Shown piece after piece: positions 16,441 through 48,040 of a DNA stretch of 64,000 nt; positions within the stretch are counted from its first letter, which is position 1; every line of letters starts with the position of its first letter. The translations under genes were made by a program, and so were the position numbers. The DNA is from Escherichia phage CMS-2020a. Under the pieces are notes generated by a model. It did no database searches, was not told the DNA's origin, and saw only the letters and a program-made list of their open reading frames with translations. The stretch lies in sequence record CP054387.1. The stretch is one strand, 5' to 3'.

Positions 16441-16532
16441 GGTCTGGCATGTCTTACGAAGCCTGCTTCCGTATATATTTAATAAGTTACTTATTATTTA
16501 TATATACAGATGCAGGTCTTTAAATAAGCTCC
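16441..16532. repeat. large imperfect palindrome (GCCTGCTTCCGTATAT, AT-rich core, ATATACAGATGCAGG)
   Basis: Inverted arms at 16461-16477 and 16501-16518 with outer GGTCTGG/CCAGACC; second copy at 47951-48040. Confidence 0.5.
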
Positions 16533-16540
16533 CAGACCGA

Positions 16541-16807
16541 TTACATCACCAGTAACTTCGCTTTGGCTCGACCTAAAGTGGTTAACCCAAGAGTTCGGCG
16601 GTGATAGCGATTGTCACTGCGTTGGCGCGTATGCCCTTTCTCCACCAGCCCCTTTTTTATCAGAGCGCGAATTGAGAACTGGATACTTTGCTTGGTTGTC
16701 TTGTACGGCAAAACTTCAAGCAATTCGTCCAGGTCAAGTAGATGACCTCGCTCATAACCGAGATTGAGCGTTTTGATGATGTCCTTTTGTTTATCGGTTA
16801 ACGTCAT
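16541..16807 (-). CDS. small DNA-binding protein (winged-helix-like, putative)
   Basis: 88-aa basic ORF. Confidence 0.35.
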   Translation of the reverse strand: MTLTDKQKDIIKTLNLGYERGHLLDLDELLEVLPYKTTKQSIQFSIRALIKKGLVEKGHTRQRSDNRYHRRTLGLTTLGRAKAKLLVM

Positions 16808-16816
16808 GGCAAATCC

Positions 16817-17707
16817 TTATGCCGGTAAAGCAATTTCTAACGGTTTATCCAAAGGTTGTTTGTCGAATGCCAGCAATGGCAGCGTGTCAGGCAGTCGACG
16901 ACCAAAGTCAGGGTTTCGATACACACCATACAACGGAGACGTAAAGCTCAGGTTGTGAATGTCCTTGAGCAGCTTCACAATGCTGGCCTCGTCCACCAGA
17001 CTGTCGGCAATGTCCTGAATCGTCGTGCCACGATTCCGCCCAGCTTTTGCCAGGGAACTGTTCTTGTGGTAGTCCGCCACCAGATCACGCAGTGCACGGC
17101 GACGACGAGACTCGCTCATTGCGAACAACTCTTTGACGATCGCCTCGTTATCACCCGTGTCGGAACGGAAATGGCGCTGGAATACACGCAGTGCACTTTC
17201 ATAGCTCTTCGGTCGCTCAGGGCGGATGAACTTAAACCCTGCTTTCATGGCGAAGGGATTGTATTTGCTCATCGAGGACTGGATCTCAATGATTGGCCGG
17301 TCATGCATCCTGCTAACCAGGTTAATCATTCGATAAGAGACGCCTACGCCACGATACTGAGTATCCACAACTGAGCGACTGATCACCGCAAAGTTGTTAT
17401 TCACGTACCGACCCCAGTACTGGTTAGCCACGGTGGTATTAGTGGTTGGTTTCAACTTAGGAAACATGCGGTGGCGAGGTGCCAACAGTAGTTTCGGGTA
17501 AGCCATAACCACGACGCCCACCAGACGATCATCAAGTTCGCAGCGATAGTAAGTTGGCGCGAAAGGTTTGCCGTCTGTTTTGTAGTGAAGCGACTTAAGA
17601 GCGTGCCAGTCCTCTACAGTTCCCTTTGTAACAGTCATTCGCTCCAGAAAGTCCAGATGACGCGGAAACTCTTCAGGGCGGTAGCGTTTAATGATGATGT
17701 CCGTCAT
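16817..17707 (-). CDS. hypothetical protein (296 aa), fourth gene of the ParB/ABC operon
   Basis: Translationally coupled to the ABC ATPase gene (ATGA overlap at 17704-17707); weak GNAT-like YRGVGVS motif only. Confidence 0.5.
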   Translation of the reverse strand: MTDIIIKRYRPEEFPRHLDFLERMTVTKGTVEDWHALKSLHYKTDGKPFAPTYYRCELDDRLVGVVVMAYPKLLLAPRHRMFPKLKPTTNTTVANQYWGRYVNNNFAVISRSVVDTQYRGVGVSYRMINLVSRMHDRPIIEIQSSMSKYNPFAMKAGFKFIRPERPKSYESALRVFQRHFRSDTGDNEAIVKELFAMSESRRRRALRDLVADYHKNSSLAKAGRNRGTTIQDIADSLVDEASIVKLLKDIHNLSFTSPLYGVYRNPDFGRRLPDTLPLLAFDKQPLDKPLEIALPA

Positions 17708-18369
17708 AAATGGACCTCATCATGACTACCATTGTGATATTCCACCTTCACGCGTTCTTTGTAGTGCTTGGTGATCTGCATATCCGGGCGCAGCGCGTTC
17801 TTCAGGTCTTCGTGAGTCGTCGCCACCATTACCGTCGCACCAACCTTTCGAGCGGCACGCTGGAGGTTAGATGCCACAACCTGAGCGGTTACACGGTCTA
17901 GAACAGCACCGAACTCGTCAGCAGCCCACACTTTAGCGCCTGACTCAATCAGTTTGGCAATCTTGAGACGATATTTCTGGCCGTCTGACATTTCAGAAGG
18001 CTTGCGAACAAACAGATATGCATCGTTCAGACCAGCCATAGATAACAACCCAAGCGCATCGCTGGTCGTTTTGCCCAACTGATCGATGACGTTAACCTCA
18101 TTATCGAAGGTAAAATCATCGATGGAGGCTACAGACAGCCCTTCATCCTTCATCTGTCGTTGCAACTCGCGCAGCACAACGGATTTGCCGGAACCGGATT
18201 GGCCGGTGATGTACACCACATCGCCCTGCTTCACTTCCAGCTCCAGATTGTCGTAAAGCGTCCACTCTTTTTCGTCCAGGCCAAGCCCGAACGACTCAGC
18301 GATTTCCAACGTGCGCGTGGTTTTATTTACGCGTGTCTGAAACGATACGTTGATGTTGTATTTGCTCAT
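17704..18369 (-). CDS. stand-alone ABC-type ATPase
   Basis: Walker A GQSGSGKS, ABC signature MSDGQKYRL, Walker B VWAADEFG, H-loop ATTHE. Confidence 0.7.
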   Translation of the reverse strand: MSKYNINVSFQTRVNKTTRTLEIAESFGLGLDEKEWTLYDNLELEVKQGDVVYITGQSGSGKSVVLRELQRQMKDEGLSVASIDDFTFDNEVNVIDQLGKTTSDALGLLSMAGLNDAYLFVRKPSEMSDGQKYRLKIAKLIESGAKVWAADEFGAVLDRVTAQVVASNLQRAARKVGATVMVATTHEDLKNALRPDMQITKHYKERVKVEYHNGSHDEVHL

Positions 18370-19034
18370 GCAGCCATCTCCCCGGAAGAGATCTTCTCCG
18401 CATATGCCACAAATGCGTCTACCCCGCTTTCTCCCGTCATTTCTTCCATATGGGCAAGCAAATCACCAACAACAATGGCAGAGCCAGCAGGGAGAGTTTT
18501 AAAGCCCAATACGTCGACAACACGTACTTCTTCCGCTGCAACTTCACGACTGATCTCGGTGTGTTCATCCTTCTGTCGTTTAGTTTCTTCGCTAAGATCG
18601 ATAACTAGCGAGTCGGTGTCCATTTCTTCTGTCATACTGCCAACGAGAACATTCAACTCACGCTCTTCAAAGCCGAAAACCTCGATATCGTCCAGAACAA
18701 GCGACTCAAGCTCTTTCTGTAGCTTAATTGCATCGTAATCAATGCTGGCAAGTCGGTTATCTTCAAGGCGCTTCGCACGAACCTCGTCATCACTGAGATC
18801 ATCGCGAACAATAACCGGTACACGCTCAAGTCCAGCAAAAATTGCAGCCTCACGGCGGCCGTGGCCAGTAATAATTACGTCGTTCTTATCGACCGTAATT
18901 GGCTGGTCAAATCCGCGCTTTTTAATGGCTGCGGCCAGATCTCTGATCTGCTGTTCATCATGCTTTTTGGCATTCATCTCATAGGGAATAAGATCTGCCG
19001 GGTCGCGATATACGATTTCAAACTTTTTGGTCAT
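18366..19034 (-). CDS. ParB-like nuclease domain protein
   Basis: ParB N-terminal domain pattern (ITGHGRREAAIFAGLERVPVIV); start at ATG 19034 with AAGGAG RBS. Confidence 0.6.
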   Translation of the reverse strand: MTKKFEIVYRDPADLIPYEMNAKKHDEQQIRDLAAAIKKRGFDQPITVDKNDVIITGHGRREAAIFAGLERVPVIVRDDLSDDEVRAKRLEDNRLASIDYDAIKLQKELESLVLDDIEVFGFEERELNVLVGSMTEEMDTDSLVIDLSEETKRQKDEHTEISREVAAEEVRVVDVLGFKTLPAGSAIVVGDLLAHMEEMTGESGVDAFVAYAEKISSGEMAA

Positions 19035-19732
19035 TACATACGCTCCTTGTAGTAGTCGACCAGCCACACTAGAGCCTCACCAGCGTTTTCCATTTCATTG
19101 CCAGTATTAATTGCCTGGTCTTTGATGATGTTTTTTATGGTTTCTGCAACGCGATCTGACGCATCGAAGGTTACTTTGAAGCGCATGGTCTGATGTTCCG
19201 CACCGACACGTTCGGTTTTCTCTCGTTTGTCGGTATCGACAGGCTCATCACTACCACGAGACAACGCCTCCAGTGCTTCAAGGTCGATTGCCGCCTCTTT
19301 TGCTAAAACCATCGAGATTTCGTCGTCATACGGGGCGATTTCAGACAGTTGATAGTCAAGTTCTGACTGAATTTCTTCAATGAAGCGTTGCAATGCGATT
19401 TGGTCGTCTTCACCGTATCGCTCGTTGTCCACCAGTGACATCTGTTTTGCCACGACATCGCTAATTTTGCCCACAGAAAGCACAGGAACCGTTGAAATTC
19501 CTTGCTCAATAGCAGCACGCCAGCGATGTTCGCCGCCGAGGATTTCAAAAAATCCATCTTCAAGCTCACGAGCCAAAATTGGCTTAAAAAAGCCCAATTT
19601 TTCGATAGAACCTTTCAGTTTTTCGAAATTCTGCGCACCAACCGAATTGGTGTTCCAGGTATTCGGGCGAAGGTTGGCAACATCAACCTGCAAAATCGTG
19701 ATTTTTACGTCCATTTTATTGCTACAATCCAC
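19034..19732 (-). CDS. ParB-like nuclease domain protein
   Basis: ParB motif GGEHRWRAA; first gene of the four-gene operon; start uncertain (19732 or 19714). Confidence 0.6.
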   Translation of the reverse strand: MDCSNKMDVKITILQVDVANLRPNTWNTNSVGAQNFEKLKGSIEKLGFFKPILARELEDGFFEILGGEHRWRAAIEQGISTVPVLSVGKISDVVAKQMSLVDNERYGEDDQIALQRFIEEIQSELDYQLSEIAPYDDEISMVLAKEAAIDLEALEALSRGSDEPVDTDKREKTERVGAEHQTMRFKVTFDASDRVAETIKNIIKDQAINTGNEMENAGEALVWLVDYYKERM

Positions 19733-19796
19733 TAAGTAATCACTTACTTATTATAATAGCCAAATAACATACAAAAGGCACTAAGGAAAGAGGTTT

Positions 19797-21356
19797 ATGA
19801 CTGTTCGGATTGTATCTAACGCAGTAAATGCGCTTATTTCTGGCGCAGATGACAAGGTAAAGCAACTGGTGCAGCAAATGTTGAGCTACGAAGTCGAGGC
19901 TGGCGACTGGAAGGGCACAAGCACAATGTTCAACTGGAGCAAAAACTCGTTCCCTGCTGGCTTTGCCAAGCCCGTGGCGGCTAATTTGAACAAGGCGGGC
20001 ATCAAATGTGTTCATATCCGCAAAGACAAAGCCCCGGCGCTTGGTAAACCAAATCCGGCGGTTAACCCATTCCCATACAATCCTGATTATGCGTATCAGG
20101 ATCAGACTGTGGAAACACTGGTTCGAGAGGGAATGATGATTGCGCAGATCGCTACTGGTGGCGGGAAATCTAACGTTGCCTGCAAAGCAGCTGCACGTAT
20201 CGGTCGAATGACATTATTTTTAACAACCCGCTCTGTTCTGATGTTTCAAATGGCCGAAAACTTCCAGAGATCCATCGACTACCGCGCCGAAAATGGCGAA
20301 CCGTGGTTAAAGGGCCAAAAGGTTGGAGTCATTGGCTCGGGTGAGTTCCAGGTATCACGACATATCAACGTCGCTACAGTTCAAACTCTGGCAAGTTTCC
20401 TTGAAGAACCACCACGCGATGCAACACCAGATAAAAAGAGCTACCACCTCAAACGTCGGGAGTTGGTGAAACGCTTCCTTTCAAGTGTGTCTCTGCTTAT
20501 TCTGGAAGAAGCGCATGAGTCTTCAGGCTCTAATTTCTATGACATTGCTAGATTATGTGTGAACGCAGACTATCGTCTGGCGCTTACAGCCACGCCGTTC
20601 ATGAAGGATTCGACGGAAGCCAACATGCGCCTGATGGCGATGGCCGGGCGAATTGAAATTAAAGTCACAGAAAAGTATCTGATTGATCGAGGCATTCTGG
20701 CAAAGCCGTACTTCCTTTATCATAAAGTTGCCTACAAGCCAGACGAGGCCAGAATCAAGGCCGAACTTGCCAACAAACACCTCAATTTTAGAGTTGGTAT
20801 GAGCACCGCCTACCAAAAGGCTTATCAGTTGGGGATCGTGTATAATTTGGGACGTAACGAGGCCATTGTGCGCGAAGCATTGCTCTATAAGCAACATTCT
20901 CTCAATTGCATGACTCTGGTTCGTCTTAAACGCCACGGGCAAATCCTGATGGAGATGATGAAGGAGTCCGGCCTTATAGTTGACTTCATCTATGGGGAAT
21001 CGAACCAGGCGACAAGGCAAGCAAAGCTGAACAGTTTAGCGTCTGGCGAAATAGATGTTTTAATAGGCTCGACTATTCTGGATGTCGGTGTTGATGTGCC
21101 AAGCGTTGGTGCGGTCATTCTGGCTGGTGGTGGGAAAGCAGAAGTTGAAATGAGACAGCGTGTCGGTCGTGGCTTACGAGCCAAGAAGAATCAGGCAAAC
21201 GTGTGTTTTATCACTGATTTCATTGACATTAGCAACAAATACCTGTTGTCTCACTCTTATGAGCGAAAACACATCATCGACACCACACCTGGCTTTGCAG
21301 AAGGTGTATTGCCTGTTGATGGCGCATTCGATTTTGGAGTTCTGAAACGAGATTAG
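19797..21356 (+). CDS. superfamily 2 DNA helicase (DEAH-box)
   Basis: Walker A ATGGGKS, motif II ILEEAHES, C-terminal helicase domain; RBS AAGGAAAGAGG. Confidence 0.7.
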   Translation: MTVRIVSNAVNALISGADDKVKQLVQQMLSYEVEAGDWKGTSTMFNWSKNSFPAGFAKPVAANLNKAGIKCVHIRKDKAPALGKPNPAVNPFPYNPDYAYQDQTVETLVREGMMIAQIATGGGKSNVACKAAARIGRMTLFLTTRSVLMFQMAENFQRSIDYRAENGEPWLKGQKVGVIGSGEFQVSRHINVATVQTLASFLEEPPRDATPDKKSYHLKRRELVKRFLSSVSLLILEEAHESSGSNFYDIARLCVNADYRLALTATPFMKDSTEANMRLMAMAGRIEIKVTEKYLIDRGILAKPYFLYHKVAYKPDEARIKAELANKHLNFRVGMSTAYQKAYQLGIVYNLGRNEAIVREALLYKQHSLNCMTLVRLKRHGQILMEMMKESGLIVDFIYGESNQATRQAKLNSLASGEIDVLIGSTILDVGVDVPSVGAVILAGGGKAEVEMRQRVGRGLRAKKNQANVCFITDFIDISNKYLLSHSYERKHIIDTTPGFAEGVLPVDGAFDFGVLKRD

Positions 21357-21358
21357 TT

Positions 21359-21637
21359 ATGAGTGAAAAGAAAACAACTTATTGCCAAGTGGCATTGTCT
21401 GATAAGGCCAATGAAAAACTTGGAAAATTTCAAATAAAACTCAAAGAGAAAAAAATCAAGATGTCTAAGGCTGAAGTTATCAATGCCATTCTGGAGACGA
21501 TGACTATGGCTGAATTTGACAAAGTCACATCTGCCGTTGGGGTTTCCGCTAAGACGCGTGAGAAAATCATGCGCATCTATGAAAACTCCAATATGACAAA
21601 AAAAGATTTAGAGGAAATACTGAGCAGGTTGCCGTAA
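21359..21637 (+). CDS. hypothetical protein
   Basis: 92-aa ORF immediately after the helicase gene. Confidence 0.4.
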   Translation: MSEKKTTYCQVALSDKANEKLGKFQIKLKEKKIKMSKAEVINAILETMTMAEFDKVTSAVGVSAKTREKIMRIYENSNMTKKDLEEILSRLP

Positions 21638-21702
21638 CATTTCATATTTACCCCCTATCTACTAATTCTATGATGTGCTCACTTGTTAGAAAGAAGCACA
21701 TC

Positions 21703-22269
21703 ATGAGTTGGTTAAAAGAATTATCATTTGTTGACACCACTGGCGCTAAGAAAAATCATTCTTTCTGGAAAGTCAGCGATCCTTCTGATTTTCTTGTTGG
21801 TGCTAATGCTGCTTTTGAATTGCTTAACTTTTATCAACGTTATCCTGAAATGAAACACAGTCCACTCCTGTACAGAATAACAAACGATATGAATAGGTCT
21901 GGTTTATTATCAAGTGAGTCAGCGAAAGGCTTTTTTAGCAAAATAACGCCACACATATCATTCGATGCTGCAAACGAAATTGATTATCTATCCACGAAAC
22001 CTCAAGAACAATTATCTGTACCACCTGAGAAAAAAGAAAGACGAATTGCCAGCATTGAAAATATATCGAAAGAGCTTCGCACAACAACGTTGAGGCTGCT
22101 GAACTTTCTTACGCTACTGAATTGGATAGATGATCAAACATTGATTCCATCAACCGAAGCGTTGGATAACAGAGTCCTTCGTCTAAACAAAAAATCGCAA
22201 TTTGGTTTTGTGTTCACCAAAAAAGGTGAAGATTTAATCAAAAGAAAATATAGATTATTGAATAATTAA
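21703..22269 (+). CDS. hypothetical protein
   Basis: ORF 21670-22269; start placed at ATG 21703 after a hairpin at 21672-21702. Confidence 0.4.
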   Translation: MSWLKELSFVDTTGAKKNHSFWKVSDPSDFLVGANAAFELLNFYQRYPEMKHSPLLYRITNDMNRSGLLSSESAKGFFSKITPHISFDAANEIDYLSTKPQEQLSVPPEKKERRIASIENISKELRTTTLRLLNFLTLLNWIDDQTLIPSTEALDNRVLRLNKKSQFGFVFTKKGEDLIKRKYRLLNN

Positions 22270-22414
22270 TAGTCTACATGCAGGTGTATGAGAGCACCTG
22301 TATGTGACATTCATCACATTTTTTGAAGTACACACCTCCGGCTGAAAAAATTTCTTGATTGGCTGAACGATATTTGTAGGCTTTTCAATTGATAACTAAG
22401 GTCGGATACTGTAG

Positions 22415-22903
22415 ATGAGTATTTCTATAAACAAAATAATTAACTCTTTACGACATAAAATATCACATGGAAAAGATGTTCTTTTTAAAGACAAATATTA
22501 TCTATTCAACTTAGAGCCGTACAAATGTACAAAATTTTATATCACTCGCAACCGTAAATATTCAGTTTCAATCACAAAAGACATGAAGAAAATCTCTTCA
22601 GAAGAGTACTTCATATCACATATTTATATCTACCCATTTAAATTAGAACCATTAAATATAATTCTTCCAACAATAAAAGGGGTTGAACTTGAAGGTTATA
22701 CTTTAAGCTCTAACTTTAATGATATGGGTGTACAAAAACCAGGGACAAGGTCATACTACGCCTACAAAGTAAAATGCAATAACTACAACGCACTTAACAT
22801 GCTAATCAGCAAACTTGAAACGGAGATAGTCGAAGGAAATCTAAATGACGATCATGAAAAATTAGAACAAATAGAAAGACTTAGAAAGTGTGATGTTAAA
22901 TAA
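22415..22903 (+). CDS. hypothetical protein, low-GC accessory gene
   Basis: 162 aa, Lys/Asn/Ile-rich, visibly AT-rich versus the rest of the window. Confidence 0.4.
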   Translation: MSISINKIINSLRHKISHGKDVLFKDKYYLFNLEPYKCTKFYITRNRKYSVSITKDMKKISSEEYFISHIYIYPFKLEPLNIILPTIKGVELEGYTLSSNFNDMGVQKPGTRSYYAYKVKCNNYNALNMLISKLETEIVEGNLNDDHEKLEQIERLRKCDVK

Positions 22904-22918
22904 TTGGATTATCATGAT

Positions 22919-23518
22919 ATGAAAATGAAACTTTCGTTACTCCTTGCTTGCATATACCTCCCGGCGTTTTCCGCCAACGCATTATCAGATTTCGTCTCTG
23001 ACATGCAAAAAACGTACAGCATGTTTACCTCCGAAGACGTAGTAGAATACAAATCACGAGGTCTGAATCAGCCAGTTTGGTTCAGATTCTCAGACAACGC
23101 AGAAGAAACAATACTTAATGGAGGAAAAGAAAGATTACGGTTGCAAATTAACGGGACCGCTGTACCAGAAAACGTTAATGTAAGCTCTGACGAAGCCATG
23201 AAGCCATCTGGAATTGTTTTAGAAGTTCAAGACGGCACACTTTACTGTGATGAAATGGCTACAACAGGTTGCCAAGTAAACATTAGGGTTGGCAATGAAG
23301 ACCCTATCGTTACTTACGCCAAGGCTGAAGGGAATACAAGTGGAAAGGTATTGTTTATCGATGAAAATACCTCAAAACGTATCGTTCGTGACATACAGAA
23401 AACAGCGAACTCTAAATCCGTCGATAAAAAAATCTATGTTGAGGTTCCCTTCTTTGTCGTTGGTAACAAAGAATTTAAATTTGGGTTGCTGAAAACACCT
23501 CTAAGAGTATCAGAATGA
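22919..23518 (+). CDS. secreted/periplasmic protein (signal peptide)
   Basis: N-terminus MKMKLSLLLACIYLPAFSANA then LSD: signal peptide with AxA cleavage site; start placed at the first ATG. Confidence 0.45.
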   Translation: MKMKLSLLLACIYLPAFSANALSDFVSDMQKTYSMFTSEDVVEYKSRGLNQPVWFRFSDNAEETILNGGKERLRLQINGTAVPENVNVSSDEAMKPSGIVLEVQDGTLYCDEMATTGCQVNIRVGNEDPIVTYAKAEGNTSGKVLFIDENTSKRIVRDIQKTANSKSVDKKIYVEVPFFVVGNKEFKFGLLKTPLRVSE

Positions 23519-24039
23519 GAACATTGGACATCACCTACGGCATACCGGCTGAAGTATGGCCGCGAGACTACGAACATGCTGAACGTACCTTGCTCTTCTG
23601 GCGGAAAGCTAAATTTCCTGTCAGAGTCACACTTGAAGATGGTCAGGTGTTTTGCATGTATGTGCAGGGAACAATGTCTTCCCGCAACAAGCTAGATTTA
23701 TGTCCAGCACCGCTTGATAATGACAATCGTATAAGACTCCCACTTGAGCGCATTAGTACAATTGAATCAGGTGTCATTGATGGCATTGCTTACGATTTCA
23801 AAGGGAGACTAACAATACATCCTGACTATGTAGATAACCAGCCATCACGTCGTGACTTTTTTAAGATATGTCGTCAGGCTTACCAAAACGGCAAATCTAT
23901 AAGGGTCTACATGGCAGACGGTCGCGAAATTGAGGGAACGTCAGATGGTGTTGACGCCTGTCTAGTCACACTTAAGTTGGAGGACGGTAGAAAAATACTT
24001 ATTTTCTTCGATTGGGTTGAACGAATCCTTCCGTTCTAA
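23515..24039 (+). CDS. hypothetical protein, possible tandem Sm/Hfq-like fold
   Basis: ATGA overlap with the upstream gene; two internal repeats (VRVTLEDGQVF... and VRVYMADGREIEG...KILIFFDWVERI); terminator follows. Confidence 0.4.
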   Translation: MRTLDITYGIPAEVWPRDYEHAERTLLFWRKAKFPVRVTLEDGQVFCMYVQGTMSSRNKLDLCPAPLDNDNRIRLPLERISTIESGVIDGIAYDFKGRLTIHPDYVDNQPSRRDFFKICRQAYQNGKSIRVYMADGREIEGTSDGVDACLVTLKLEDGRKILIFFDWVERILPF

Positions 24040-24054
24040 TTTCTATAAGGGCAA

Positions 24055-24082
24055 TAACCGGCTAAGTCCGGTTATTATTTTA
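24055..24082 (+). terminator. rho-independent terminator
   Basis: ATAACCGGCTAAGTCCGGTTAT hairpin followed by TATTTT, after the gene ending at 24039. Confidence 0.6.
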
Positions 24083-24327
24083 CATGTCATTCATTTAATA
24101 CCTTTTCAATTCTACCCCGTATAAATATATAAGGTCGAAAGCCGGAATCAATTATTTATTTAGGGAACACCTTCGACGATCTCGCTTTTATTTCTAGGAC
24201 TTTCATCCCTGCAAAAATTTTAAAAAAATCGCTTGCAATCTTTTTTCGCATATCGATAATTGAACTCGTCGAAAGCAAACAAGCTAACGACAAATAAATT
24301 TAAATATTTACATTAAGGAATAAAATC

Positions 24328-24978: not shown

Positions 24979-25026
24979 TTAATGGAATTAAGCGCCCATA
25001 GTGGGCGCTTTAAAGGAGCTTTAAAG

Positions 25027-25230: not shown

Positions 25231-25251
25231 TTTTTTTTAAGGAGCTTAATC

Positions 25252-25482: not shown

Positions 25483-25486
25483 AATC

Positions 25487-25513
25487 GAGCGCCCACTATG
25501 GGCGCTTTTTTCG
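25487..25513 (+). terminator. rho-independent terminator
   Basis: GAGCGCCCACTATGGGCGCTT hairpin followed by TTTTTC. Confidence 0.6.
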
Positions 25514-25532
25514 TTTCCAATACACCTACCAT

Positions 25533-26580: not shown

Positions 26581-26930
26581 GATTAATTCCTTATCGTAAA
26601 TAACAAATTGTTTTCTTGTTGGCGTTAATTATCGTTGTACGAATAAGGCGTCAAAGTGGAAAGTTGCGGTAGCCGGACGGGAACAGGTGGGTTTGTCGGT
26701 TGCCTGGAGGTAAGAGGTTGGTGTTTTTAGCCTGCGGGAAACAGGATGGTCATTTAAGGCCACCAGCAGTGGTGGCCTTAATAATTATCGACCGATTACG
26801 CTAAGGATCTTTTCCTCAACTGATTTGTTGTTGCGACTAAACTGCCTTGCGTATCTGATGACAGAAGAGGCGTTTTGCTTTCTGACTATCTCGGCTCTTT
26901 CCTTCAGGCGTTTCTTGAAATCGCCCATAT

Positions 26931-28256: not shown

Positions 28257-28267
28257 CACAACTCCGT

Positions 28268-39428: not shown

Positions 39429-39669
39429 TGGCTGCCTCCTGCTTTTCTGCCTTCAACACCATGCGAGAACCATCATCCAGCTCCCACACTATCTCACCAC
39501 CTTCAGCCATGACCAGTTGCCACACCAATTGAGCAGCCTCATTGGTAACATCACGACCTGGATCATTGCCAACGCGCATACGTCCACCTTCAACATCGCG
39601 CATTTTTGCCAGCATGATAGTTTTTGATAGCGGTGAAAAACCAAGCTGTAGTCGTGCTGAATTACTCAC
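39415..39669 (-). CDS. hypothetical small protein
   Basis: 84-aa ORF. Confidence 0.3.
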   Translation of the reverse strand: MSNSARLQLGFSPLSKTIMLAKMRDVEGGRMRVGNDPGRDVTNEAAQLVWQLVMAEGGEIVWELDDGSRMVLKAEKQEAASERN

Positions 39670-40208
39670 TGGTTGCCTCCTTTGCGAAGCTGGGCAGCAA
39701 AGTCAACTAACCACTCAGTCATTTCAACCTTCCCTACCAGGTCTGAACCAGGGTGCATACAGCAATCACTCTGCGCCGCTTTGAAATCCTTATACTCATA
39801 TTCTTGGGCCACCAGATTTTTTGCAGCTTCTATAGCAGCATCCACCCCCTGCGCACGTACTTCAGCCAGAAAAGCATCGGTGGCTGGAGTCTCCGTTAAT
39901 TCGCTAACCCAATTATCTCCGTGTTCCTCGGCACACATCGCATCGAATGCTCGCTCAGATTCTTTCAGGGCTGCATTCTCCGCCGCTAATGCGTCTCTCT
40001 GCGCCCGCAACTTCTCAATTTCGGCAGCCATGTAGTAACCAACCATAGCGAAGACGGCAAAAGAGTTGTCTGCCTCATCAGGCGACACTGAGGCCATTAG
40101 CAGACCATCGTAATAATCGTGACTCCCATTGGTGATCGCCACCTCATAGGAGTCGTGGTTCTCACGCTTGTGAATGAGAACTACGGGGTTTTCGATTTTG
40201 TTACTCAT
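39666..40208 (-). CDS. hypothetical acidic protein
   Basis: 180-aa ORF. Confidence 0.4.
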   Translation of the reverse strand: MSNKIENPVVLIHKRENHDSYEVAITNGSHDYYDGLLMASVSPDEADNSFAVFAMVGYYMAAEIEKLRAQRDALAAENAALKESERAFDAMCAEEHGDNWVSELTETPATDAFLAEVRAQGVDAAIEAAKNLVAQEYEYKDFKAAQSDCCMHPGSDLVGKVEMTEWLVDFAAQLRKGGNQ

Positions 40209-40346
40209 GTGTTTTTCTCTTCTTTGCTGTTACATAAGCACTACCAAGTGCTGGTTTATTTTCACAAATAAGAAAATGTAGAAAACAATTTATTTAAGGC
40301 CACAACTTATGGCCTTTATTTATTCATGCCGAAGGATTTGTAGCGT

Positions 40347-40727
40347 CTAATTGCCGTATAAAATGGGGTGAGGTGCTTGCCAGTAGGCTCCACCGGTCCA
40401 TGTGAACCCCATGCGAATAAGAGTGTTTATTGCGGCTTTGGTAGACTCCGATTCGACACTGGCTTTACGAAACTCTTGAACCTCTTTCGCCAACCTGTAT
40501 GTAATTGTGCAGGGGACGATTGCAGCCCAGCCTTTCTCATGACTGTTAATGACCATCTGGATGTGACCATCCAGAATAGGTTGATTAGACATGTTATTGA
40601 AAATGTCTGCCTGTTTTTGAATGTGAAGAAAAAGCCTTGCCAGCTCCATTTGCTCACTACGAGACAAGGGATTATCAAGAGGGCTTTTTGCAAAAGCGGC
40701 TATACGCTGTGCGTCAATGCCAAACAT
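40347..40727 (-). CDS. hypothetical protein
   Basis: 126-aa ORF. Confidence 0.35.
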   Translation of the reverse strand: MFGIDAQRIAAFAKSPLDNPLSRSEQMELARLFLHIQKQADIFNNMSNQPILDGHIQMVINSHEKGWAAIVPCTITYRLAKEVQEFRKASVESESTKAAINTLIRMGFTWTGGAYWQAPHPILYGN

Positions 40728-41431
40728 CAGCGCACCTCACCATCTTTATGGCTGGAGTTAACTTCCGCCATTAAATGTCTGACGTAATCGACAAGAGAGC
40801 CACCTGGTGGAATCTGGCATTCCTCAACTAACTGGAAGTAGATATCCGCAGCATTACGTGTATTGCTACCCGCGCATATTCTTTCTTCCCGAAGTGCATG
40901 AAGCTCGTTGATCAAACGGTCACACTCTCCGTTACGCTGATCCACAACAGCCTCAAGTTCTGCGACGCGTTCACCTGGCGTCTTACCTTCTTCGCGTTGG
41001 ATGGTAACGACGAAATCGCCAATTGCAGGGACGTTGTAATCCAGCTCAAGGTAGTTTTTGGCACCGCTGCGGACGAACTCACCCGCGAACATGGTGGCGA
41101 ACATCTCAGAGGCCATTGTGCTGTTGAAAAGTGACTCCAGATCTAACGGAGTCCCGGCAGCCAGAGCCTCTTTTGCTGTATCCATTGTATCCATGAACCG
41201 ATCAAACTCATTAGCGCGCTTTTCCAGGTCTTTCCATTGCTCGCTCCAACGTTTGGCAATGAAGTCTATGAATGTTTTCGCGGATTCATCAAAATCCCCC
41301 TCAAACTTAACGATGCCTTTATCAATAATGATCTGGCCTACCGCATCCTCTGCATAACCTTTCAATGTAAACTTGAAAGGAAAATCAGAATGGCCTGTGA
41401 CGTTAAAATGCTCTAACTGGAGGTTGTTCAT
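40727..41431 (-). CDS. hypothetical protein
   Basis: 234-aa ORF. Confidence 0.4.
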   Translation of the reverse strand: MNNLQLEHFNVTGHSDFPFKFTLKGYAEDAVGQIIIDKGIVKFEGDFDESAKTFIDFIAKRWSEQWKDLEKRANEFDRFMDTMDTAKEALAAGTPLDLESLFNSTMASEMFATMFAGEFVRSGAKNYLELDYNVPAIGDFVVTIQREEGKTPGERVAELEAVVDQRNGECDRLINELHALREERICAGSNTRNAADIYFQLVEECQIPPGGSLVDYVRHLMAEVNSSHKDGEVR

Positions 41432-41492
41432 ATGTTTTTCTCTTATCGTTTAGTTATTACATTCTTACACAAATTAAGTAAGTATTTACCTA

Positions 41493-43178
41493 TCATTTAA
41501 CGCGTTTGAAAACGTATACGCTGACTGTGATCCCTGTGTCTTCAAACTCGTTGGTAAACGACTTCCCTCTGGCATAAACGTAATTATCCATCGTCATCCA
41601 GTCCAGTATTGGCGCAGTGCCCGGCAATACTGCTACAAGACGCCCGCCGACTTTCAGATGCCCCAGCGCAGCCAGCGTGTGCTCTCTATGACGACCAAGC
41701 GAGTACGGCGGGTTCATAACGATTTTGTCGAACTGATAACCTGCGTTGTCCTCAGACCACTTTATGAAGTCGCAGCAAATCGTGTTCGTATACCCTTTTC
41801 CACGCAGGATATCAGCGAAGAGAGGTGCGATTTCTATGCAGGTAACATCTTCCAGATCGGCGTTAATATAGGCCAGAAGATCCCCACGTCCGGCTTGAGG
41901 CTCCAACAGCTTCTCACCAGGCTTCAATTCAGTGGCTCTGGCAACGTACTCAGCAATCAAGCGTGGGGTAGGGTAGAACTGGTGTGATTTTGTATCCGGT
42001 ATTAAACCGGTAGCCACAATCGTATTTAGCGTATGGCCGATCTCATACGGGAACTGCCAGTGCTTTTTCTCCTGCACGCCGCCAATGAAGCTCAGTGTGC
42101 GCTCAAGCTCTTCCACCTGCGACTTCTGGAGAGCTGAATCAGAGAAGTACCATACGCCTTTGTCTTTGCTCAATCGCCCGTCACGAAGCGCAGTGCGAAC
42201 CGGCACGGAGATCGTCTTCTGGATTAACCCGAACTGCTTTGGTGCCCGTGTTTTTGGCGCAGTTCGGCATGGCGCGGGGATTGCAGCAGGCATACTGTAA
42301 GCCAGCACCTCATTCAACTTCCAGGCCACGTCAGGATGTATTTCAAAGTGAACGTTGCCGTTCTTGAACATCTTCACGCGCATCAGATTTCCATCGACGT
42401 TCATCCAGTCACCGGTCTGGCAGTCGTTTGCCCGATACGCAGCTGATAGCACCTCAGCAGTGCGGTTGATGGTAATAAATTCTTTGTGCGCGAAGAAATG
42501 AAGCAAGACACGCAGATCGTCGATGTAGTCCTCTTTGCGATAGTTCACGCTAACGCTGTCACGCCAGAAATCAGAAATGCAGTCAGCGATTATCAGACGC
42601 TCGCTGAAACCGTTTGTCTTATTTGTCTTGTGCGCAGGACTCAGCGCCTTAAACAAGCCATACACGCGCTCAGAGAGATATTTGTGCCTGTCATTCAGCA
42701 AATTAAGCATCGTTGGTATGACCGTTTCTGCTTTGAACTCCGGTACACCAACGAACTCTTTAACCTTCATCTGATAGCCGGTTCTGTCAGTTTTGATGAC
42801 TTCCTGCTTGCCCTCGATAAATAGCTCACGCCACTCGTCGCGACGGGAAGCTGGCATGATCAGCAGAACGTTAGTCATATCCGTAACCTTCCTCCAGTAC
42901 TCGGCCCAAATATTCTGTTTCACCCATTCCAGATCGACGTTATCCAGCCAGACTCGATTCAAACGTGAGCGATCTTCATCTGGTCGGTGGTTTAGTCGAA
43001 GCAGGCGATTAATCATGTTGTGGCGTTCATCGCCATAAACGAAGTCGTGTACCTGATACATGAAGGAGATCTCTTTCTCGCACTCGGCCACAATTTCGTG
43101 GATGACGTTCATTTCCTGTCGATAGTCGATAGCAGTGTTTGAGCTGGCATCGCCCATGATGGAAAGGGCTGTATTCAT
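41493..43178 (-). CDS. DNA N6-adenine methyltransferase with a large N-terminal domain of unknown function
   Basis: C-terminal half has SAM motif LLEPQAGRGD followed by catalytic VMNPPYS; about 400 N-terminal residues unassigned. Confidence 0.55.
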   Translation of the reverse strand: MNTALSIMGDASSNTAIDYRQEMNVIHEIVAECEKEISFMYQVHDFVYGDERHNMINRLLRLNHRPDEDRSRLNRVWLDNVDLEWVKQNIWAEYWRKVTDMTNVLLIMPASRRDEWRELFIEGKQEVIKTDRTGYQMKVKEFVGVPEFKAETVIPTMLNLLNDRHKYLSERVYGLFKALSPAHKTNKTNGFSERLIIADCISDFWRDSVSVNYRKEDYIDDLRVLLHFFAHKEFITINRTAEVLSAAYRANDCQTGDWMNVDGNLMRVKMFKNGNVHFEIHPDVAWKLNEVLAYSMPAAIPAPCRTAPKTRAPKQFGLIQKTISVPVRTALRDGRLSKDKGVWYFSDSALQKSQVEELERTLSFIGGVQEKKHWQFPYEIGHTLNTIVATGLIPDTKSHQFYPTPRLIAEYVARATELKPGEKLLEPQAGRGDLLAYINADLEDVTCIEIAPLFADILRGKGYTNTICCDFIKWSEDNAGYQFDKIVMNPPYSLGRHREHTLAALGHLKVGGRLVAVLPGTAPILDWMTMDNYVYARGKSFTNEFEDTGITVSVYVFKRVK

Positions 43179-43281
43179 AATTGCACCATTAAGAAATGAT
43201 TTGTTTAATGATGCAATTATTTCAAAAATAAAAAGGTGCTAAATAGAAATTAACAGGCAATACTTAAAATAAAGGCATTGA

Positions 43282-43956
43282 CTAATCATACTTGGATGTA
43301 TTTATAACCAGGACTTTATTTGTATATAGTTTTTTTACATTCCATGTAACATTACTTGAATACCATTCACCATTATATATTTGGTTTCCCGTTGCGCCTG
43401 TCATTGTTACGTATACAGGTCTGTCGTAAGGTGTTCGTCTATAGTTATATACTCCAACCATTGCAGGCATTATCGCACACGGGTATCCCATATTTATGGT
43501 AAATTGAGGATTTGTAATAGTGATAATCTCTGCATCAAGGGGCATCATCTCACCGTGATATACCATTTTACCTGCGCTATTATACATGGCAATACCATAT
43601 CCTGAATGTGGTAACACCATATCAGAAAAAGCATAAACTGTTATCGTTCCGGGGTTTCCTCCAACCTGATTCAGTCTGAGAACATTATACCCATCTCTAA
43701 ATTCATGAACGAACATCATATTCGCCTTATTACTGCTTTTTATAAAGAAAAAACATGATTTGTTCGACGGTATTGAAGTCTTAAAAACAGAACCTTTAGA
43801 CGTGGACATTGTCCCCCTATTAATCAAATTTTGCGGTGTAAATTCTGGACTCATCCACACATTACCATTTGACTGAGTAATTGACATCCCGAACATTATT
43901 GTTATCCCCAATATGTATATATATAAGATCCAAGTCCCTTGTATAAATTTGACCAA
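43282..43956 (-). CDS. hypothetical membrane/secreted protein, low-GC accessory gene
   Basis: N-terminal hydrophobic segment WILYIYILGITIMFGM; AT-rich; overlaps ORF 43902-44183 in another frame (possible frameshift). Confidence 0.3.
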   Translation of the reverse strand: MVKFIQGTWILYIYILGITIMFGMSITQSNGNVWMSPEFTPQNLINRGTMSTSKGSVFKTSIPSNKSCFFFIKSSNKANMMFVHEFRDGYNVLRLNQVGGNPGTITVYAFSDMVLPHSGYGIAMYNSAGKMVYHGEMMPLDAEIITITNPQFTINMGYPCAIMPAMVGVYNYRRTPYDRPVYVTMTGATGNQIYNGEWYSSNVTWNVKKLYTNKVLVINTSKYD

Positions 43957-44237
43957 CTTACTGTATTGCCGTTAATAGTGATAGTTGGTGTAGGTATATT
44001 TACATGGTTATCGTTATTTAAAGGCATCAATGAGCACACAGCATGTAATGATTTGCCAGGTGGTGGATTTGGGTAAGTCTTAGAGCCTGACGTGGTTGTA
44101 AATCGATCAAGAAAAAAAATAGGAGTAAGGAAGCCGGTAACGTTAACTCCCTTATTATTGTAGATCCCTGTACCGTATGCCATTTTTCATCCTTGTTTTT
44201 ATCAACATAATATGGCCGATCATGCGGCCATATCAGA

Positions 44238-44807
44238 TCAATTAGAGCTTTGAAAGGCTTTGTGTGGCTGTGTTGCGAGGTTATGTCGATGGCTTAACTC
44301 ACGCATCATGTCTTCAAGGCGACTCTTTGTGTCGTCGAGTTGGTCAGCCATTGCTCCTAAAAGCTGACGAACTACCATCGGATCGTCGCTGTTTAGTGAT
44401 GGCATTTTATAACCCGCCTGAGAAGACATCAGATTGAATGCTGACATCAACATCGTTAGAGAGGATTTAAGCCCGGCAATTTCACGATCTTTGCTGGCAA
44501 TAATCGTCTCACTTTTGTTACTGTCATGAGTTCCTTGAGTCTCGATCACCATATCCAAAGTCTCTTGCAACTTATCAGCTCTCTGTTTTTCAGCAAGATA
44601 ATGAACACCGAAATGATGTGCTAAAGCTACAACCTGAGTTGGCTCTTCAAAGGTGGACTCAAAATTAAGTGCTGTAACCACTCTCTCAAAAATGGAAACG
44701 TCTTCTATTCCTCGAAGAATGGCTAACATTTTGACAAGTTCATTAGCATCCATTTCTTCGAATAGGGCGTTTTGTTCATCAGCTATTGCTTTGCATTTCT
44801 CGCACAT
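44238..44807 (-). CDS. hypothetical protein
   Basis: 189-aa ORF; AAACAAGTTGTTTTCT motif upstream. Confidence 0.4.
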   Translation of the reverse strand: MCEKCKAIADEQNALFEEMDANELVKMLAILRGIEDVSIFERVVTALNFESTFEEPTQVVALAHHFGVHYLAEKQRADKLQETLDMVIETQGTHDSNKSETIIASKDREIAGLKSSLTMLMSAFNLMSSQAGYKMPSLNSDDPMVVRQLLGAMADQLDDTKSRLEDMMRELSHRHNLATQPHKAFQSSN

Positions 44808-45104
44808 ATGTTTTCCTTAATGCTTAAACAAGTTGTTTTCTTATTGGCTTTATTGTGATGTGGCATAAAAGGGGAGCAAGCTAAACGTAAAGGTGCAAAC
44901 TCTCTATTTCGGTCAACGAAACACAATGGCCATTTGACCCTTGTCATTAACACGTTGCTTTACGGACTAGCGGATAAGCGAAGTAGATCGCCAGACCAAT
45001 GAGGACGCCATCAGAAATGACAGACATCATCTTTCCCGTAAAATCCACCAACACCGCCATCACCAGAAGAGCAATGACGGTCACAAGCCGGAATCTCTCA
45101 AGCA

Positions 45105-45530
45105 TTAGAGATAAGCATCCAGTGACAACTGAAGCGCCTGGGCGATCTTTTTCAGCGCCTGCTCTTCTGGTTCATCAATGCCGTCTTGGTCGGCAATATC
45201 AAGGCACAGACAAAGTACATCTACTGCATCATCAGTCCCGGCCACATCCGCCAGCTCACGTAAAGCCTGGGCATTAGCACGGCGCGGTGAGGCTTCGTAT
45301 TGAGCGCGGATATTGGCGCTCATCTGGGCAATCTCACCAGCAAAAGGAGAAAATGCAGGCAGAGCTGCAATTGTTTTCTCAAGAATGGAAATTTCTTTTG
45401 CATCGCATGTACCGTTGGCATAGGAGATCATGTACCCACCCCACACGGTGGCTTCAACCGCATCACGGTTCTCCATTTTTTTGACTTCGATAACTGCTTT
45501 ACGAGTTTTCTTTTTGAAGAAACCTAACAT
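45105..45530 (-). CDS. hypothetical protein, possibly TerB-like
   Basis: 141 aa; weak TerB-like pattern; motif copy upstream. Confidence 0.3.
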   Translation of the reverse strand: MLGFFKKKTRKAVIEVKKMENRDAVEATVWGGYMISYANGTCDAKEISILEKTIAALPAFSPFAGEIAQMSANIRAQYEASPRRANAQALRELADVAGTDDAVDVLCLCLDIADQDGIDEPEEQALKKIAQALQLSLDAYL

Positions 45531-45623
45531 GTGTTTTCCTTTTGTTATTGGTCAAAACAAGTTGTTTTCTAGTTAAATAAATTGCTTACGCAAAGACGGT
45601 CAATGCATATGCACTAACAACCG

Positions 45624-45812
45624 TCAGAAATAACCAAGTACCGAACCGACTGGAAAAATAAAAATCCCAACTACACGAGCCAAGGTCATGCCAGCCTGAA
45701 ACTGGAGATCGCCAGAGCAAACAAGTTTTATAATGTTCGATACCCAACCGGCGGCCATGAGGGCAAGAATTGCCAGCCAAATTTTTCCAAAGTGATTTGA
45801 AAACCAGTTCAT
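45624..45812 (-). CDS. small membrane protein (two predicted TM helices)
   Basis: 62 aa, hydrophobic (IWLAILALMAAGWV and VVGIFIFPVGSVLGYF). Confidence 0.35.
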   Translation of the reverse strand: MNWFSNHFGKIWLAILALMAAGWVSNIIKLVCSGDLQFQAGMTLARVVGIFIFPVGSVLGYF

Positions 45813-45821
45813 ACAACCGCC

Positions 45822-46337
45822 TTAGTCACAGCATGATCCTGAGTAACTGGATGAACTTGAGGTATCGCATCCACCGTCATCCCATCCAGAGTGACAGGTC
45901 GCTCTACTGGAGTGGTGGTAATTGTCGTCGACGGAGGTGTGGTGATGGATGAATCCGGCATCAAAAGGCTCTGACCGGCTGGAACGGCTACCGTCGCCAG
46001 TGAAACTATAATGAGAACGTAGGCCATTGGTTTCAGCCTCTTTCTTTGAAAATTTTCCATTCGAACTGTCCTTGTTGTTTTTCTCCTTCACTAAAGGCCG
46101 TGCATTTTTCGCTTCGCGTGAAGAACCAGAGGCAACAATCGCCCACACGTTCGCAACAACTGACGCTTGATTATCTAAACGTTCATTCAGCAACCGAACG
46201 GTAGTCTCTAGTTCATCAAGGCGTGACATAACACGACCGCTAAATAATTCGGCCAAAATTTGACGTAAAGAACGAGGACGTTTAGTTACAGAAGTGAAAT
46301 AGGTTTGACGTGCCATGTGGACTCCATCCAGTGTCAT
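45822..46337 (-). CDS. hypothetical protein (3' portion uncertain)
   Basis: 171-aa ORF; N-terminal 90 aa look protein-like, C-terminal Ser-rich part overlaps alternative ORF 45809-46060 encoding a signal-peptide protein. Confidence 0.3.
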   Translation of the reverse strand: MTLDGVHMARQTYFTSVTKRPRSLRQILAELFSGRVMSRLDELETTVRLLNERLDNQASVVANVWAIVASGSSREAKNARPLVKEKNNKDSSNGKFSKKEAETNGLRSHYSFTGDGSRSSRSEPFDAGFIHHHTSVDDNYHHSSRATCHSGWDDGGCDTSSSSSYSGSCCD

Positions 46338-46461
46338 AAAGAGTTGCGGCTGGCAATCGCCAGCCGCCTTTCTCGTTCCATCCTGGAACTGTGTCTTACC
46401 GACACATTGTCATCCTGACGCCGATAAGATACATGATTTATAATGATAGGTAAACACTTAC

Positions 46462-47055
46462 TTACTGTTTGTTATAAACAAAACCAATATCTTTCTTGTG
46501 AGGCATATCTGCTGCTGAAAAAGCTGCGATCTTCGCGAGTCGATCACATATTTCATTTTCACGATGCCCGGCGTGACCTTTAACCCACTTCCAGCGAACA
46601 TTATGTCGACTTGCGGCCTCATCCAGACGCTTCCACAGATCAACATTCTTTACCGGTTTTTTGTCAGAAGTCATCCATCCATTGCGTTTCCACCATTTCA
46701 TCCACTGTGTCATGCCGTTTTTCAGATACTGGCTATCAGAGTGCAAAATAACGTTGCATGGATATTTCAAACGCTCCAGCCCGATAAGTGCCCCCATCAT
46801 CTCCATGCGGTTATTGGTGGTGCTATGAAAACCATCTGAGAACTCGCGTTCCTCGCCACGATACTGGAGAACGATACCGTAACCGCCCGGGCCACCCGGA
46901 TTTTTAAGGCAAGAGCCATCACTAAAGATTTTCACGGTTTTAAGCTGGGGATTGAACTCTACGACAGGCGTTGTGGGATTGGTGCGGGGAGAATTTTTGT
47001 TTTTGTCTTTTTTGCGAGTTTTTGCTTGCGGTCGGGCTGGTGTCTTCGTTGTCAT
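46462..47055 (-). CDS. ribonuclease HI
   Basis: [18 protein letters not shown] and FSDGSC...GYG motifs typical of RNase HI; start at ATG 47055 (RBS AGGAG). Confidence 0.8.
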
Positions 47056-47636
47056 ATAAACTCCTGAATCAAGCGCCGCGCCGATTTTTCCTCGCGCGTG
47101 CGCACACGCGTGCGTGTTAATAATTATTAAAATAAACAAATTACTTCCCAGAACAGGTTTTTATAAACCTGAACTGAACGAACGAAGTGAGTGAAGTTCA
47201 CCTCGAACGAAGTGAGAGGTTGTCTTTTCAGGTAATACTCTCCCAGGGAGGTGAGTATAAAATTCCTCACCAACCTGGTCGTTTCATAACCTGAAAAGCT
47301 ATGGTCTAAGTCTACTGCCAGCTTAGACTTGGGAAGTTATGGATGACAGCACCCCAGAACCGAGATCTTCCCACACTTTATGAAGGGGAGTACTGGATTC
47401 AACCTCTCGAAACACCCCAGACTCGACAATCATAAAGTGACCCTTGTCTCCGCTCACTTTGGTTCCCCCTTCCCCGACACCTAAACGGCACCGGTTCTAC
47501 GCTGGTAGTGAGCTTTTTTAAACCTGACGCCAGTGACGCTTACCCCCACCCATCAGGTCGAGTCTCCAGTCTACGACTGGAAACTATCAGATCTTAGCAC
47601 TTACAATTCATCTTATGAATAGTTTGTACTTATCTA

Positions 47637-47891
47637 TCATTTCGATTGATTATTTTCTCGACCATGTAGTTGAACATTCAAGGCAAACACCTCGTTGATC
47701 AACTCACCTAAAAGCTGTTCAACAAGTTCGCGATGCTCCCCAAGATGCAAGCACTTAATTGCCCACTCGTACAAGTTGAAAGCCTGCTCACGATCTTTCA
47801 TCATTTCACGAGCCTGGGCCAGAAAATCGCTGTCTACGAGCGCAACGACATTAGTCGGGTATGACATGTTGGTTTCCTTAAAGTGGTTCAT
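47637..47891 (-). CDS. hypothetical small protein
   Basis: 84-aa ORF. Confidence 0.35.
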   Translation of the reverse strand: MNHFKETNMSYPTNVVALVDSDFLAQAREMMKDREQAFNLYEWAIKCLHLGEHRELVEQLLGELINEVFALNVQLHGRENNQSK

Positions 47892-47950
47892 AAAATCGAT
47901 TTTAAAGCGTCTGGGAAGGGGGGTCTAGTGGATTCTGTAGTGATGTTCAG

Positions 47951-48040
47951 GTCTGGAGTCTCTGATACAAAACAGCCTGCTTCCGTATATTAATAATTAA
48001 TATGTAGTTATTTATATATATACAGAAGCAGGCTAATTAC
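47951..48040. repeat. second copy of the large imperfect palindrome
   Basis: CAGCCTGCTTCCGTATAT ... ATATACAGAAGCAGGCTAA, one mismatch between arms. Confidence 0.5.

Follow-up and report, generated by a model that had tools for sequence, protein, structure and literature searches.

Inverted repeats that surround AT-rich DNA and are recognised by a protein are already familiar from several described systems. In herpes simplex virus (HSV), oriS and oriL carry inverted recognition boxes for UL9 around an AT-rich centre, a hairpin-capable palindrome found in three intergenic copies in a genome that encodes its own replisome. In phage P1, the C1 operators are asymmetric units with a GC part followed by an AT-rich part, annotated as 17-bp sites that stand singly or as bivalent, inverted overlapping pairs; the incomplete palindromes with AT-rich centres that they form are dispersed in front of lytic functions of the plasmid-prophage. 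In the packaging-initiation (pac) site of the same phage, the region of cleavage, which contains an IHF site, lies in the middle between recognition repeats. Related sites include ssiA and ssiB at oriV of RSF1010, an inverted pair of priming signals that puts a signal of ~24-40 nucleotides (nt) on each strand beside AT-rich DNA, and the scattered short palindromes bound by ParB-family proteins in N15 and RK2. Here, we describe a triad of long inverted repeats in the SSU5-like phage-plasmids. Two of them, elements A and B, lie in the 64,000-nt stretch of record CP054387.1 (Escherichia phage CMS-2020a) that was analysed, hereafter the window, and the third, site C, lies outside it and is seen in relatives. 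The triad is an uncharacterised, family-defining cis element, and its arms are probably read by a sequence-specific protein encoded by the phage-plasmid itself. We regard the elements as most likely being cis-acting sites at the level of DNA, with an easily melted core, and not RNA elements.

BLAST of both element regions identifies the window as an Escherichia coli SSU5-like phage-plasmid. It matches Cyrano (pLF82) at 97.4-99.2% identity, the Escherichia phages PhiR41_1 and CMS-2020a at 97.6-99.2%, and Salmonella phage SSU5, like a group of Klebsiella phage-plasmids, at 77-88%. Searches of the literature on SSU5, pHCM2 and phage-plasmids turned up neither a published description of the element nor termini data.

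Anatomy and distribution of the three sites

An earlier note on the window had reported two palindromic copies of roughly 90 bp. Both exist and were on the whole accurately described, including their gene contexts: A lies between a small helix-turn-helix gene, an open reading frame (ORF) for a winged-helix-like protein of 88 amino acids (aa), and the small terminase gene terS, and B lies between dam and an 84-aa ORF. The right ends, however, had been placed too early, by 6 nt for A (16538, not 16532) and by 12 nt for B (48052, not 48040, with one mismatch in the right outer arm). Each element has a core of 55-57 nt, made up of CCTGCTTCYGTATATA, an AT-rich centre and TATATACRGAAGCAGG, and is framed by the outer arms GGTCTGG/CCAGAMC (Table 1). 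The 17-mer AGCCTGCTTCCGTATAT, allowing up to 3 mismatches, has 4 matches in the window, where chance alone would give 0.16; the core profile hits the window at A and B only (E 7e-18 and 7e-16), and the half-unit profile at the four arms only. When folded as single-stranded DNA, both strands of A and B give hairpins of ~100 nt (z -5.1 to -6.5), a stability reached by none of 200 shuffles, with a stem of 20-45 bp and an AT-rich top, and the two cores tie as the most AT-rich stretches of 30-40 nt in the window. CCAGAC, considered as a possible iteron, forms no array; apart from the outer arms, it has only one or two copies.

The conserved unit of the elements is a sequence of ~24 bp, GCCTGCTTCCG followed by TATATATAAATA, that is, a GC-containing 10-14-mer and then a TATA-rich tail, which is nearly always found as an inverted pair around AT-rich DNA. 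In the main lineage, to which the window belongs, the AT-rich ends of the two inverted units abut. The core also has a conserved polarity, the profile in the direction of transcription scoring 61 and 54 bits on the coding strand versus 44 and 43 on the other, because the coding-strand left unit (16494-16516 and 48008-48032, read on the minus strand), and not its partner arm, contains TATAAATA. This is the octamer of T4 late promoters. Most main-lineage genomes have it at all three sites, and the Providencia, pCAV and KpPF25 lineages introduced below lack it; it may be there by chance in TA-rich DNA.

In SSU5, the core is found at three places, namely at the record ends (A), at 78.3 kb (B) and at 33.46 kb (C), the last between a DUF2971 gene and a hypothetical gene that is followed by a DnaB-like helicase and a primase. 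The three site classes can be told apart by their neighbours: the winged-helix gene and terS at A, dam and the 84-aa ORF (ORF84) at B, and a variable upstream gene and the phrog_2500-DnaB-primase genes at C. An IMG/VR search with a degenerate core pattern gave 120 loci, assigned to sites by their flanks, and with the reference genomes the total comes to 127 elements, all of them syntenic (50 at A, 43 at B and 34 at C). With an anchor that is independent of the element, the 3' end of the winged-helix gene, the core is found at site A in every complete SSU5-like locus, and ~800 PLSDB plasmids match, from Klebsiella, Escherichia, Enterobacter, Yersinia (including Y. pestis CO92), Salmonella, Citrobacter and Cronobacter. 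The element is thus a fixed feature of the family and not a mobile repeat. Mobile palindromic repeats of the REP/BIME, ERIC and MITE kinds are ruled out by this synteny and by the number of copies in the window, exactly two. A TerS search of the GTDB genomes returned only four close relatives. In one IMG/VR locus (L158, IMGVR_UViG_2695420523_000009), the end of an IS1 (GGTGATGCTGCCAACTTACTGATTTAGTG...) lies within element A right after CCTGCTTCTG, from ~13250 onward, so at least one plasmid is maintained with A disrupted.

Table 1. Elements A and B and the features around them in the window; all surrounding genes are on the minus strand.
Feature	Position	Strand	Remarks
terL	14457-15713	-	gene context of element A
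terS (phrog_867)	15713-16345	-	start codon 96 nt downstream of element A
Element A, full imperfect palindrome	16441-16538	.	98 nt; between 88-aa ORF stop and terS
Element A outer arm GGTCTGG	16441-16447	.	pairs with CCAGACC at 16532-16538
Element A core	16462-16516	.	55 nt; plus strand: CCTGCTTCCGTATATA, AT-rich centre, TATATACAGATGCAGG
Element A outer arm CCAGACC	16532-16538	.	pairs with GGTCTGG
88-aa winged-helix-like ORF (phrog_900)	16541-16807	-	stop codon 2 nt from element A
84-aa ORF, ORF84 (phrog_5343)	47637-47891	-	first gene downstream of element B
Sigma-70-like promoter TAGACC-17-TAAAAT	47899-47927	-	between element B and 84-aa ORF
Element B, full imperfect palindrome	47951-48052	.	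102 nt; between dam stop codon and 84-aa ORF
Element B outer arm GGTCTGG	47951-47957	.	pairs with CCAGAAC at 48046-48052
T-rich tract CTGTTTTGTATCAG	47962-47975	-	coding strand, directly after element B core
Element B core	47976-48032	.	57 nt; CCTGCTTCCGTATATT, AT-rich centre, TATATACAGAAGCAGG
Element B outer arm CCAGAAC	48046-48052	.	one mismatch to partner
dam, Dam-family methyltransferase (PF05869)	48056-48649	-	stop codon 3 nt from element B

Lineage-specific arms and a putative arm-reading protein

The core is 52-57 nt long, most often 55, and its arms CCTGCTTCYGTATA / TATACRGAAGCAGG are essentially invariant, whereas the centre is variable but AT-rich. The plasmid of Cronobacter sp. JZ38 illustrates how far this goes: neither its intergenic flanks nor its centre can be aligned, it has lost the outer GGTCTGG arms, and of its arms CCTGCTTCCGTATA / TATACGGAAGCAGG the left is exact at B and C and the right at A and C, the deviations being an altered left arm at A (CCTGCTTCCCATA) and two differences in the right arm at B. 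Flip-flop inversion of the spacer was looked for in the main lineage and not seen; the only inverted centre is that of JZ38 site C, relative to A and B of the same plasmid.

Where arms do change at a single site, the change is mirrored on the partner arm. Site B of pJN2-26 reads CTTTCG / CGAAAG and its site C CCTGTTTC / GAAACAGG, one site-B variant reads CGTCTG / CAGACG, and in one lineage both outer arms of A have changed, with the standard form retained at B in the same genome. RNAalifold finds 3 pairs with compensatory changes among 21 site-A variants. The mirrored changes may reflect selection for pairing; palindrome-templated correction could give the same pattern. Exchange also appears to occur between sites: in the E. 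coli-lineage contig IMGVR_UViG_3300045988_149282, the cores of A (locus L109) and C (L030) are identical at 55/55 positions despite unrelated flanks, which points to gene conversion between copies >30 kb apart. The A and C cores of SSU5 differ from each other.

More distant plasmids, whose TerS proteins are only 46-61% identical, still have the three syntenic sites with inverted arms around AT-rich DNA. The arm variant differs by lineage, but within each genome of the four lineages a recognisably common variant is used at all sites: GCCTGCTTCCGTATAT in the main lineage, GCCTGGCTCCTATATA in that of KpPF25 p2, GCCTTGCTCTGGATAG in that of pCAV1099-111 and GCCGTGCTCCCATAAT in that of Providencia pPROV236-2. 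The spacer between the arms ranges from ~25 to ~120 nt across the lineages. Weaker left arms are seen in pCAV and KpPF25, where the left arm at B lies inside the 3' end of dam and ordinary GC-hairpin terminators adjoin the units. Providencia has a fourth, single unit between cobT-like and cobS-like genes; in pPROV236-2 (CP096299), this unit, GCCGCGCTCCCATAATATTTATATAG, stands right after the cobT-like stop codon (reverse-complement coordinate ~91789), with an operator-like palindrome between it and the cobS-like ATPase gene.

Invariance of the arms within a lineage, lineage variants that are common to all sites, and tolerance of very different spacers are together the grounds on which we consider it fairly likely that a sequence-specific protein encoded by the element reads the arms; when sites co-evolve with a trans-acting factor, a common variant at every site of a genome is to be expected. 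Such a factor could be encoded in the gene block upstream of terS (16541-19067, minus strand, and onward). This block is kept in all lineages examined. Besides the 88-aa winged-helix protein, it codes for an ABC-type ATPase, two proteins with ParB_N domains and an ATPase that carries a fused acetyltransferase-like domain (annotation: MK0520/TmcA-like), and a DEAD/DEAH helicase is transcribed divergently from it. The genes adjoining the three sites are mutually unrelated, no paralogy having been found among them, and the phrog_2500 protein beside site C gave no informative sequence or fold match.

Possible functions of the three sites

We tentatively propose that the three sites may be initiation sites of lytic replication. 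In the proposed model, the abutting AT-rich unit ends of the main lineage would form an easily melted core, able to extrude as a hairpin or cruciform, the phage-plasmid-encoded protein would recognise the GC-containing arms, and its binding would open the core, onto which the DnaB-like helicase, primase and Pol III alpha replisome of the phage-plasmid would be loaded; the three sites of each genome would then be the start points of DNA replication in the lytic cycle. Four features suggest this. The first is the arrangement of box, AT-rich core and box, together with the hairpin potential on both strands; two inverted boxes flanking an AT-rich stretch match the anatomy of palindromic origins, a likeness of architecture only. 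The second is the position of site C, which in relatives lies directly upstream of the helicase-primase module. The third is that SSU5-like phage-plasmids have, according to their annotation, a full replisome and recombination gene set of their own, with no lytic origin annotated in their records, and the fourth is the apparent recombination of the sites with each other. The GC and AT skews of the whole SSU5 genome are monotonic with gene direction, show no inflection at the three sites and are uninformative.

The model resembles the HSV origins in its inverted boxes, hairpin-capable AT-rich centre, three intergenic copies and self-encoded replisome, but there is no homology, the spacer differs between lineages from 25 to ~120 nt, and the flanking genes are co-oriented and not divergent. 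An inverted-pair layout of the RSF1010 ssi kind would suit bidirectional priming by an element-encoded primase. Unlike RSF1010, however, the sites have no adjoining iterons, and there are three loci instead of one. Elsewhere in the window, two iteron-like tandem-repeat pairs of ~30 nt lie 3.5 kb apart at 26693-26756 and 30178-30244 (consensus ..GGTAGCCTGG.GnAAGAGGTTGGT.TTTT).

It is conceivable, if somewhat doubtful, that the sites are instead terminators or insulators at module boundaries, at which a hairpin, either in RNA or in DNA with a bound roadblock protein, would stop read-through into the packaging, ORF84 and replication operons, a role that would matter most in the plasmid-prophage state. 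As expected of intrinsic terminators or the RNase III hairpins of T7-type phages, the sites are long stable hairpins right after stop codons in co-directional operons, each copy beginning 0-25 nt past a stop codon with the next gene and promoter-like motifs 40-200 nt further on, and, as in T7, the copies have sequence in common. A T-rich tract gives B a terminator-like look (Table 1); in the main lineage, the 9 nt after the hairpin contain 5.6-6.0 T at B and C in the sense direction versus 3.0-3.9 in the antisense direction, and in pCAV a T8 run comes after site A. Among the G.U pairs in the arms, those that favour the sense strand outnumber the others by 41 to 11, in counts that are not phylogenetically independent. 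In the Cyrano lysogen, transcription drops across C from ~6-fold above background to below background (CYRAN_30 vs CYRAN_31; PMC9928086); around A and B the same RNA-seq data are at background level, so they are informative for C only.

Against a conserved terminator function stands, to begin with, element A of the main lineage, which has no counterpart of the T-rich tract (2.9 T of 9), and a consensus terminator scan called neither A nor B. The case for an RNA hairpin or terminator is further weakened by Providencia, where the arms are 52 to ~120 nt apart, with loops of up to ~120 nt and no clear T-tract after them, and by pCAV and KpPF25, in which the separate GC-hairpin terminators imply that the unit itself is not the terminator. 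RNA folding shows no consistent strand bias (sense/antisense energies of -56.1/-54.2 for A, -45.5/-53.8 for B and -39.4/-40.1 for C), and an Rfam 15 scan of the whole window gave 0 matches at the gathering threshold. Finally, a terminator has no need for a sequence of 14-16 nt that is constant across genera and common to all sites of a genome. In the replication model, the hairpins of B and C would have gained their T-tract secondarily, and at these two sites of the main lineage an existing hairpin is probably put to secondary use in terminating read-through transcription.

A third possibility, which we consider rather unlikely, is that the inverted units are operators at which an element-encoded regulator binds in front of three lytic operons, those for late/packaging functions, the ORF84-anti-repressor region and replication. 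All three sites do precede operons that need to be silent in lysogeny, and arm variants common to all sites of a genome are a classic signature of operator/repressor specificity. The asymmetric unit with its GC and AT parts, in inverted pairs at A, B and C and once single in Providencia, is also that of the P1 C1 operators, although this agreement is one of architecture only. Unlike in P1, C1 has no homologue here: with P1 C1 as the query, tblastn searches of the window, SSU5, pJN2-26, pCAV and Providencia yielded no hit below E = 4. A homologue of P1 Lpa is likewise absent; there are 3 sites, or 4 in one lineage, versus >14, and they measure 55-100 nt versus 17-28 bp. The main difficulty is the promoters. 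The earlier note had suggested strong promoters with operator arms, and while arms that stay constant amid divergence and vary by lineage lend indirect support to the second half of this idea, the first half is not supported: there are 0 sigma-70 promoter-like sites in 16200-16900, and none in or across element A, and the only promoter match that touches B points against the genes, on the non-coding strand, so a sigma-70 promoter flanked by operator arms is found at neither element. The nearest promoter-like sites lie 40-100 nt downstream, and their geometry relative to the elements differs between lineages. At B, the coding-strand match is 45-75 nt downstream of the core; this site (47899-47927), which has a similar counterpart in a relative at the same position (TGGAAC-16-TAGAAT), is a plausible promoter for ORF84.

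A better candidate for the operator of the prophage repressor than elements A, B and C is the operator-like palindrome ATAGGTAAGTAnnTACCTAT (variants ATAAGTA...ACTTAT), which recurs at promoter-like sites. It occurs at least 10 times in the window (~1843, 8343, 10973, 12934, 14442, 41462, 46440, 48655-48682, 58203 and 62887-62916), and relatives have a copy immediately downstream of site C, in the promoter-like region there. The half-sites of this palindrome resemble the centre of the main-lineage core, ATAAGTnACTTAT. Another near-palindrome, AAACAAsTTGTTT, is found in many intergenic regions, often directly before a short GC hairpin, and resembles a phage-specific promoter, perhaps a late one, or an activator site. 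Its positions include 16364-16430 (minus strand) and ~26596, 28263, 28748, 30489, 31169, 31220, 35160, 40280, 44821, 45541 and 55768. Between element A and the ribosome-binding site of terS, two copies are accompanied by the hairpin AGAGCGC-ATGGAC-GCGCTCT, which keeps its pairing with a different sequence in JZ38 (CGGCGC/GCGCCG) and pCAV (GGCGTC/GATGCC).

The earlier note had also raised a link to packaging. In such a model, TerS would bind the arms and TerL would cut the AT-rich centre, starting headful packaging, for which a TerL of the T4-like/Terminase_3 type, as encoded here, is usual. The idea suits copy A, which in all lineages examined precedes terS by 35-100 nt and whose layout recalls the P1 pac site, but not B and C, which are equally conserved and lie 25-45 kb from terS; we know of no phage with three conserved pac sites, and a near-symmetric site would give no packaging direction. 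For these reasons, we consider a pac function improbable. SSU5 was sequenced from virions, and its GenBank record is opened within the AT-rich centre of A (NC_018843; L003 at its start and L005 at its end); that of Cyrano (OV696614; L135 and L136) has its ends there too, shifted by 1 nt. The left arm of A is likewise where two IMG/VR contigs (L142 and L155) stop, one of them a full-length plasmid contig of 108.6 kb; IMG/VR loci were stored cut for other reasons, so that truncation of a locus is not usable as evidence of a contig end. Since the start of the Cyrano record is a copy of the SSU5 orientation (PMC9928086) and plasmid-state assemblies break in A as well, these breaks are not evidence of virion ends, and assembly failure induced by the palindrome is a sufficient explanation.

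It also seems unlikely that the palindromes are programmed break sites which, after induction, switch the circular plasmid-prophage to recombination-dependent replication of the T4 style. Cruciforms, or hairpins on the lagging strand, may in that case be cut by the phage-plasmid's own SbcCD/gp46-gp47-like nuclease, giving DNA ends that may then be used with a UvsX-like recombinase and a gp32-like single-stranded DNA-binding protein, and repair from the other copies would explain both the concerted evolution of the arms and the identical A and C cores.

Least probable are dispersed centromere-like sites for a ParB-family protein, serving plasmid partition and/or global silencing. N15, with four scattered SopB sites, offers a precedent for dispersed palindromic sites in a phage-plasmid, and in N15 and RK2 (KorB OB), as with the putative protein-binding sites described here, few conserved palindromic sites are scattered beside replication and lytic-control regions. 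In all lineages, the genes for two ParB_N-domain proteins lie 2-3 kb upstream of A, and the plasmid-prophage is of low copy number (5.5 copies per cell; PMC9928086). However, the known parS, sopC and OB sites are compact, perfect palindromes of 13-16 bp, each bound by one ParB-family dimer, whereas the half-sites here are 14-24 bp long, are not palindromic on their own and are separated by a long AT-rich spacer of 25 to ~120 nt; moreover, the plasmid's ParA and its small partner form a type Ib system that is located elsewhere. A hairpin-telomere resolution site of the N15 telRL type is ruled out, as related records are circular, there are three copies and not one, and the annotations of SSU5, pJN2-26, JZ38, pCAV and KpPF25 contain no protelomerase.

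Significance for SSU5-like phage-plasmids

About 500 nt downstream of element B lies a 44-aa ORF (47323-47457, minus strand) that corresponds to CYRAN_81. In the published transcriptome of the LF82 lysogen, CYRAN_81 is expressed at ~12-fold over the prophage background (117 vs a median of 9.8) while its neighbours are silent (PMC9928086), and it may be a small protein or a small RNA expressed in lysogeny.

In Klebsiella, E. coli, Enterobacter and Salmonella, SSU5-like phage-plasmids rank among the commonest large plasmids, and plasmids of Yersinia pestis belong to the group as well. They are clinically widespread and carry resistance genes, and their lytic-cycle replication and gene regulation are essentially unstudied. 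The palindromes explain the recurrent assembly breaks in these plasmids and the arbitrary start of the SSU5 reference record. With its sites at the start of the packaging, replication and ORF84 modules, the triad provides a concrete experimental handle: it predicts one DNA-binding protein per lineage, which would be retrievable with the arms, and it marks three candidate places for lytic origins, for packaging starts or for the insulation of operons.

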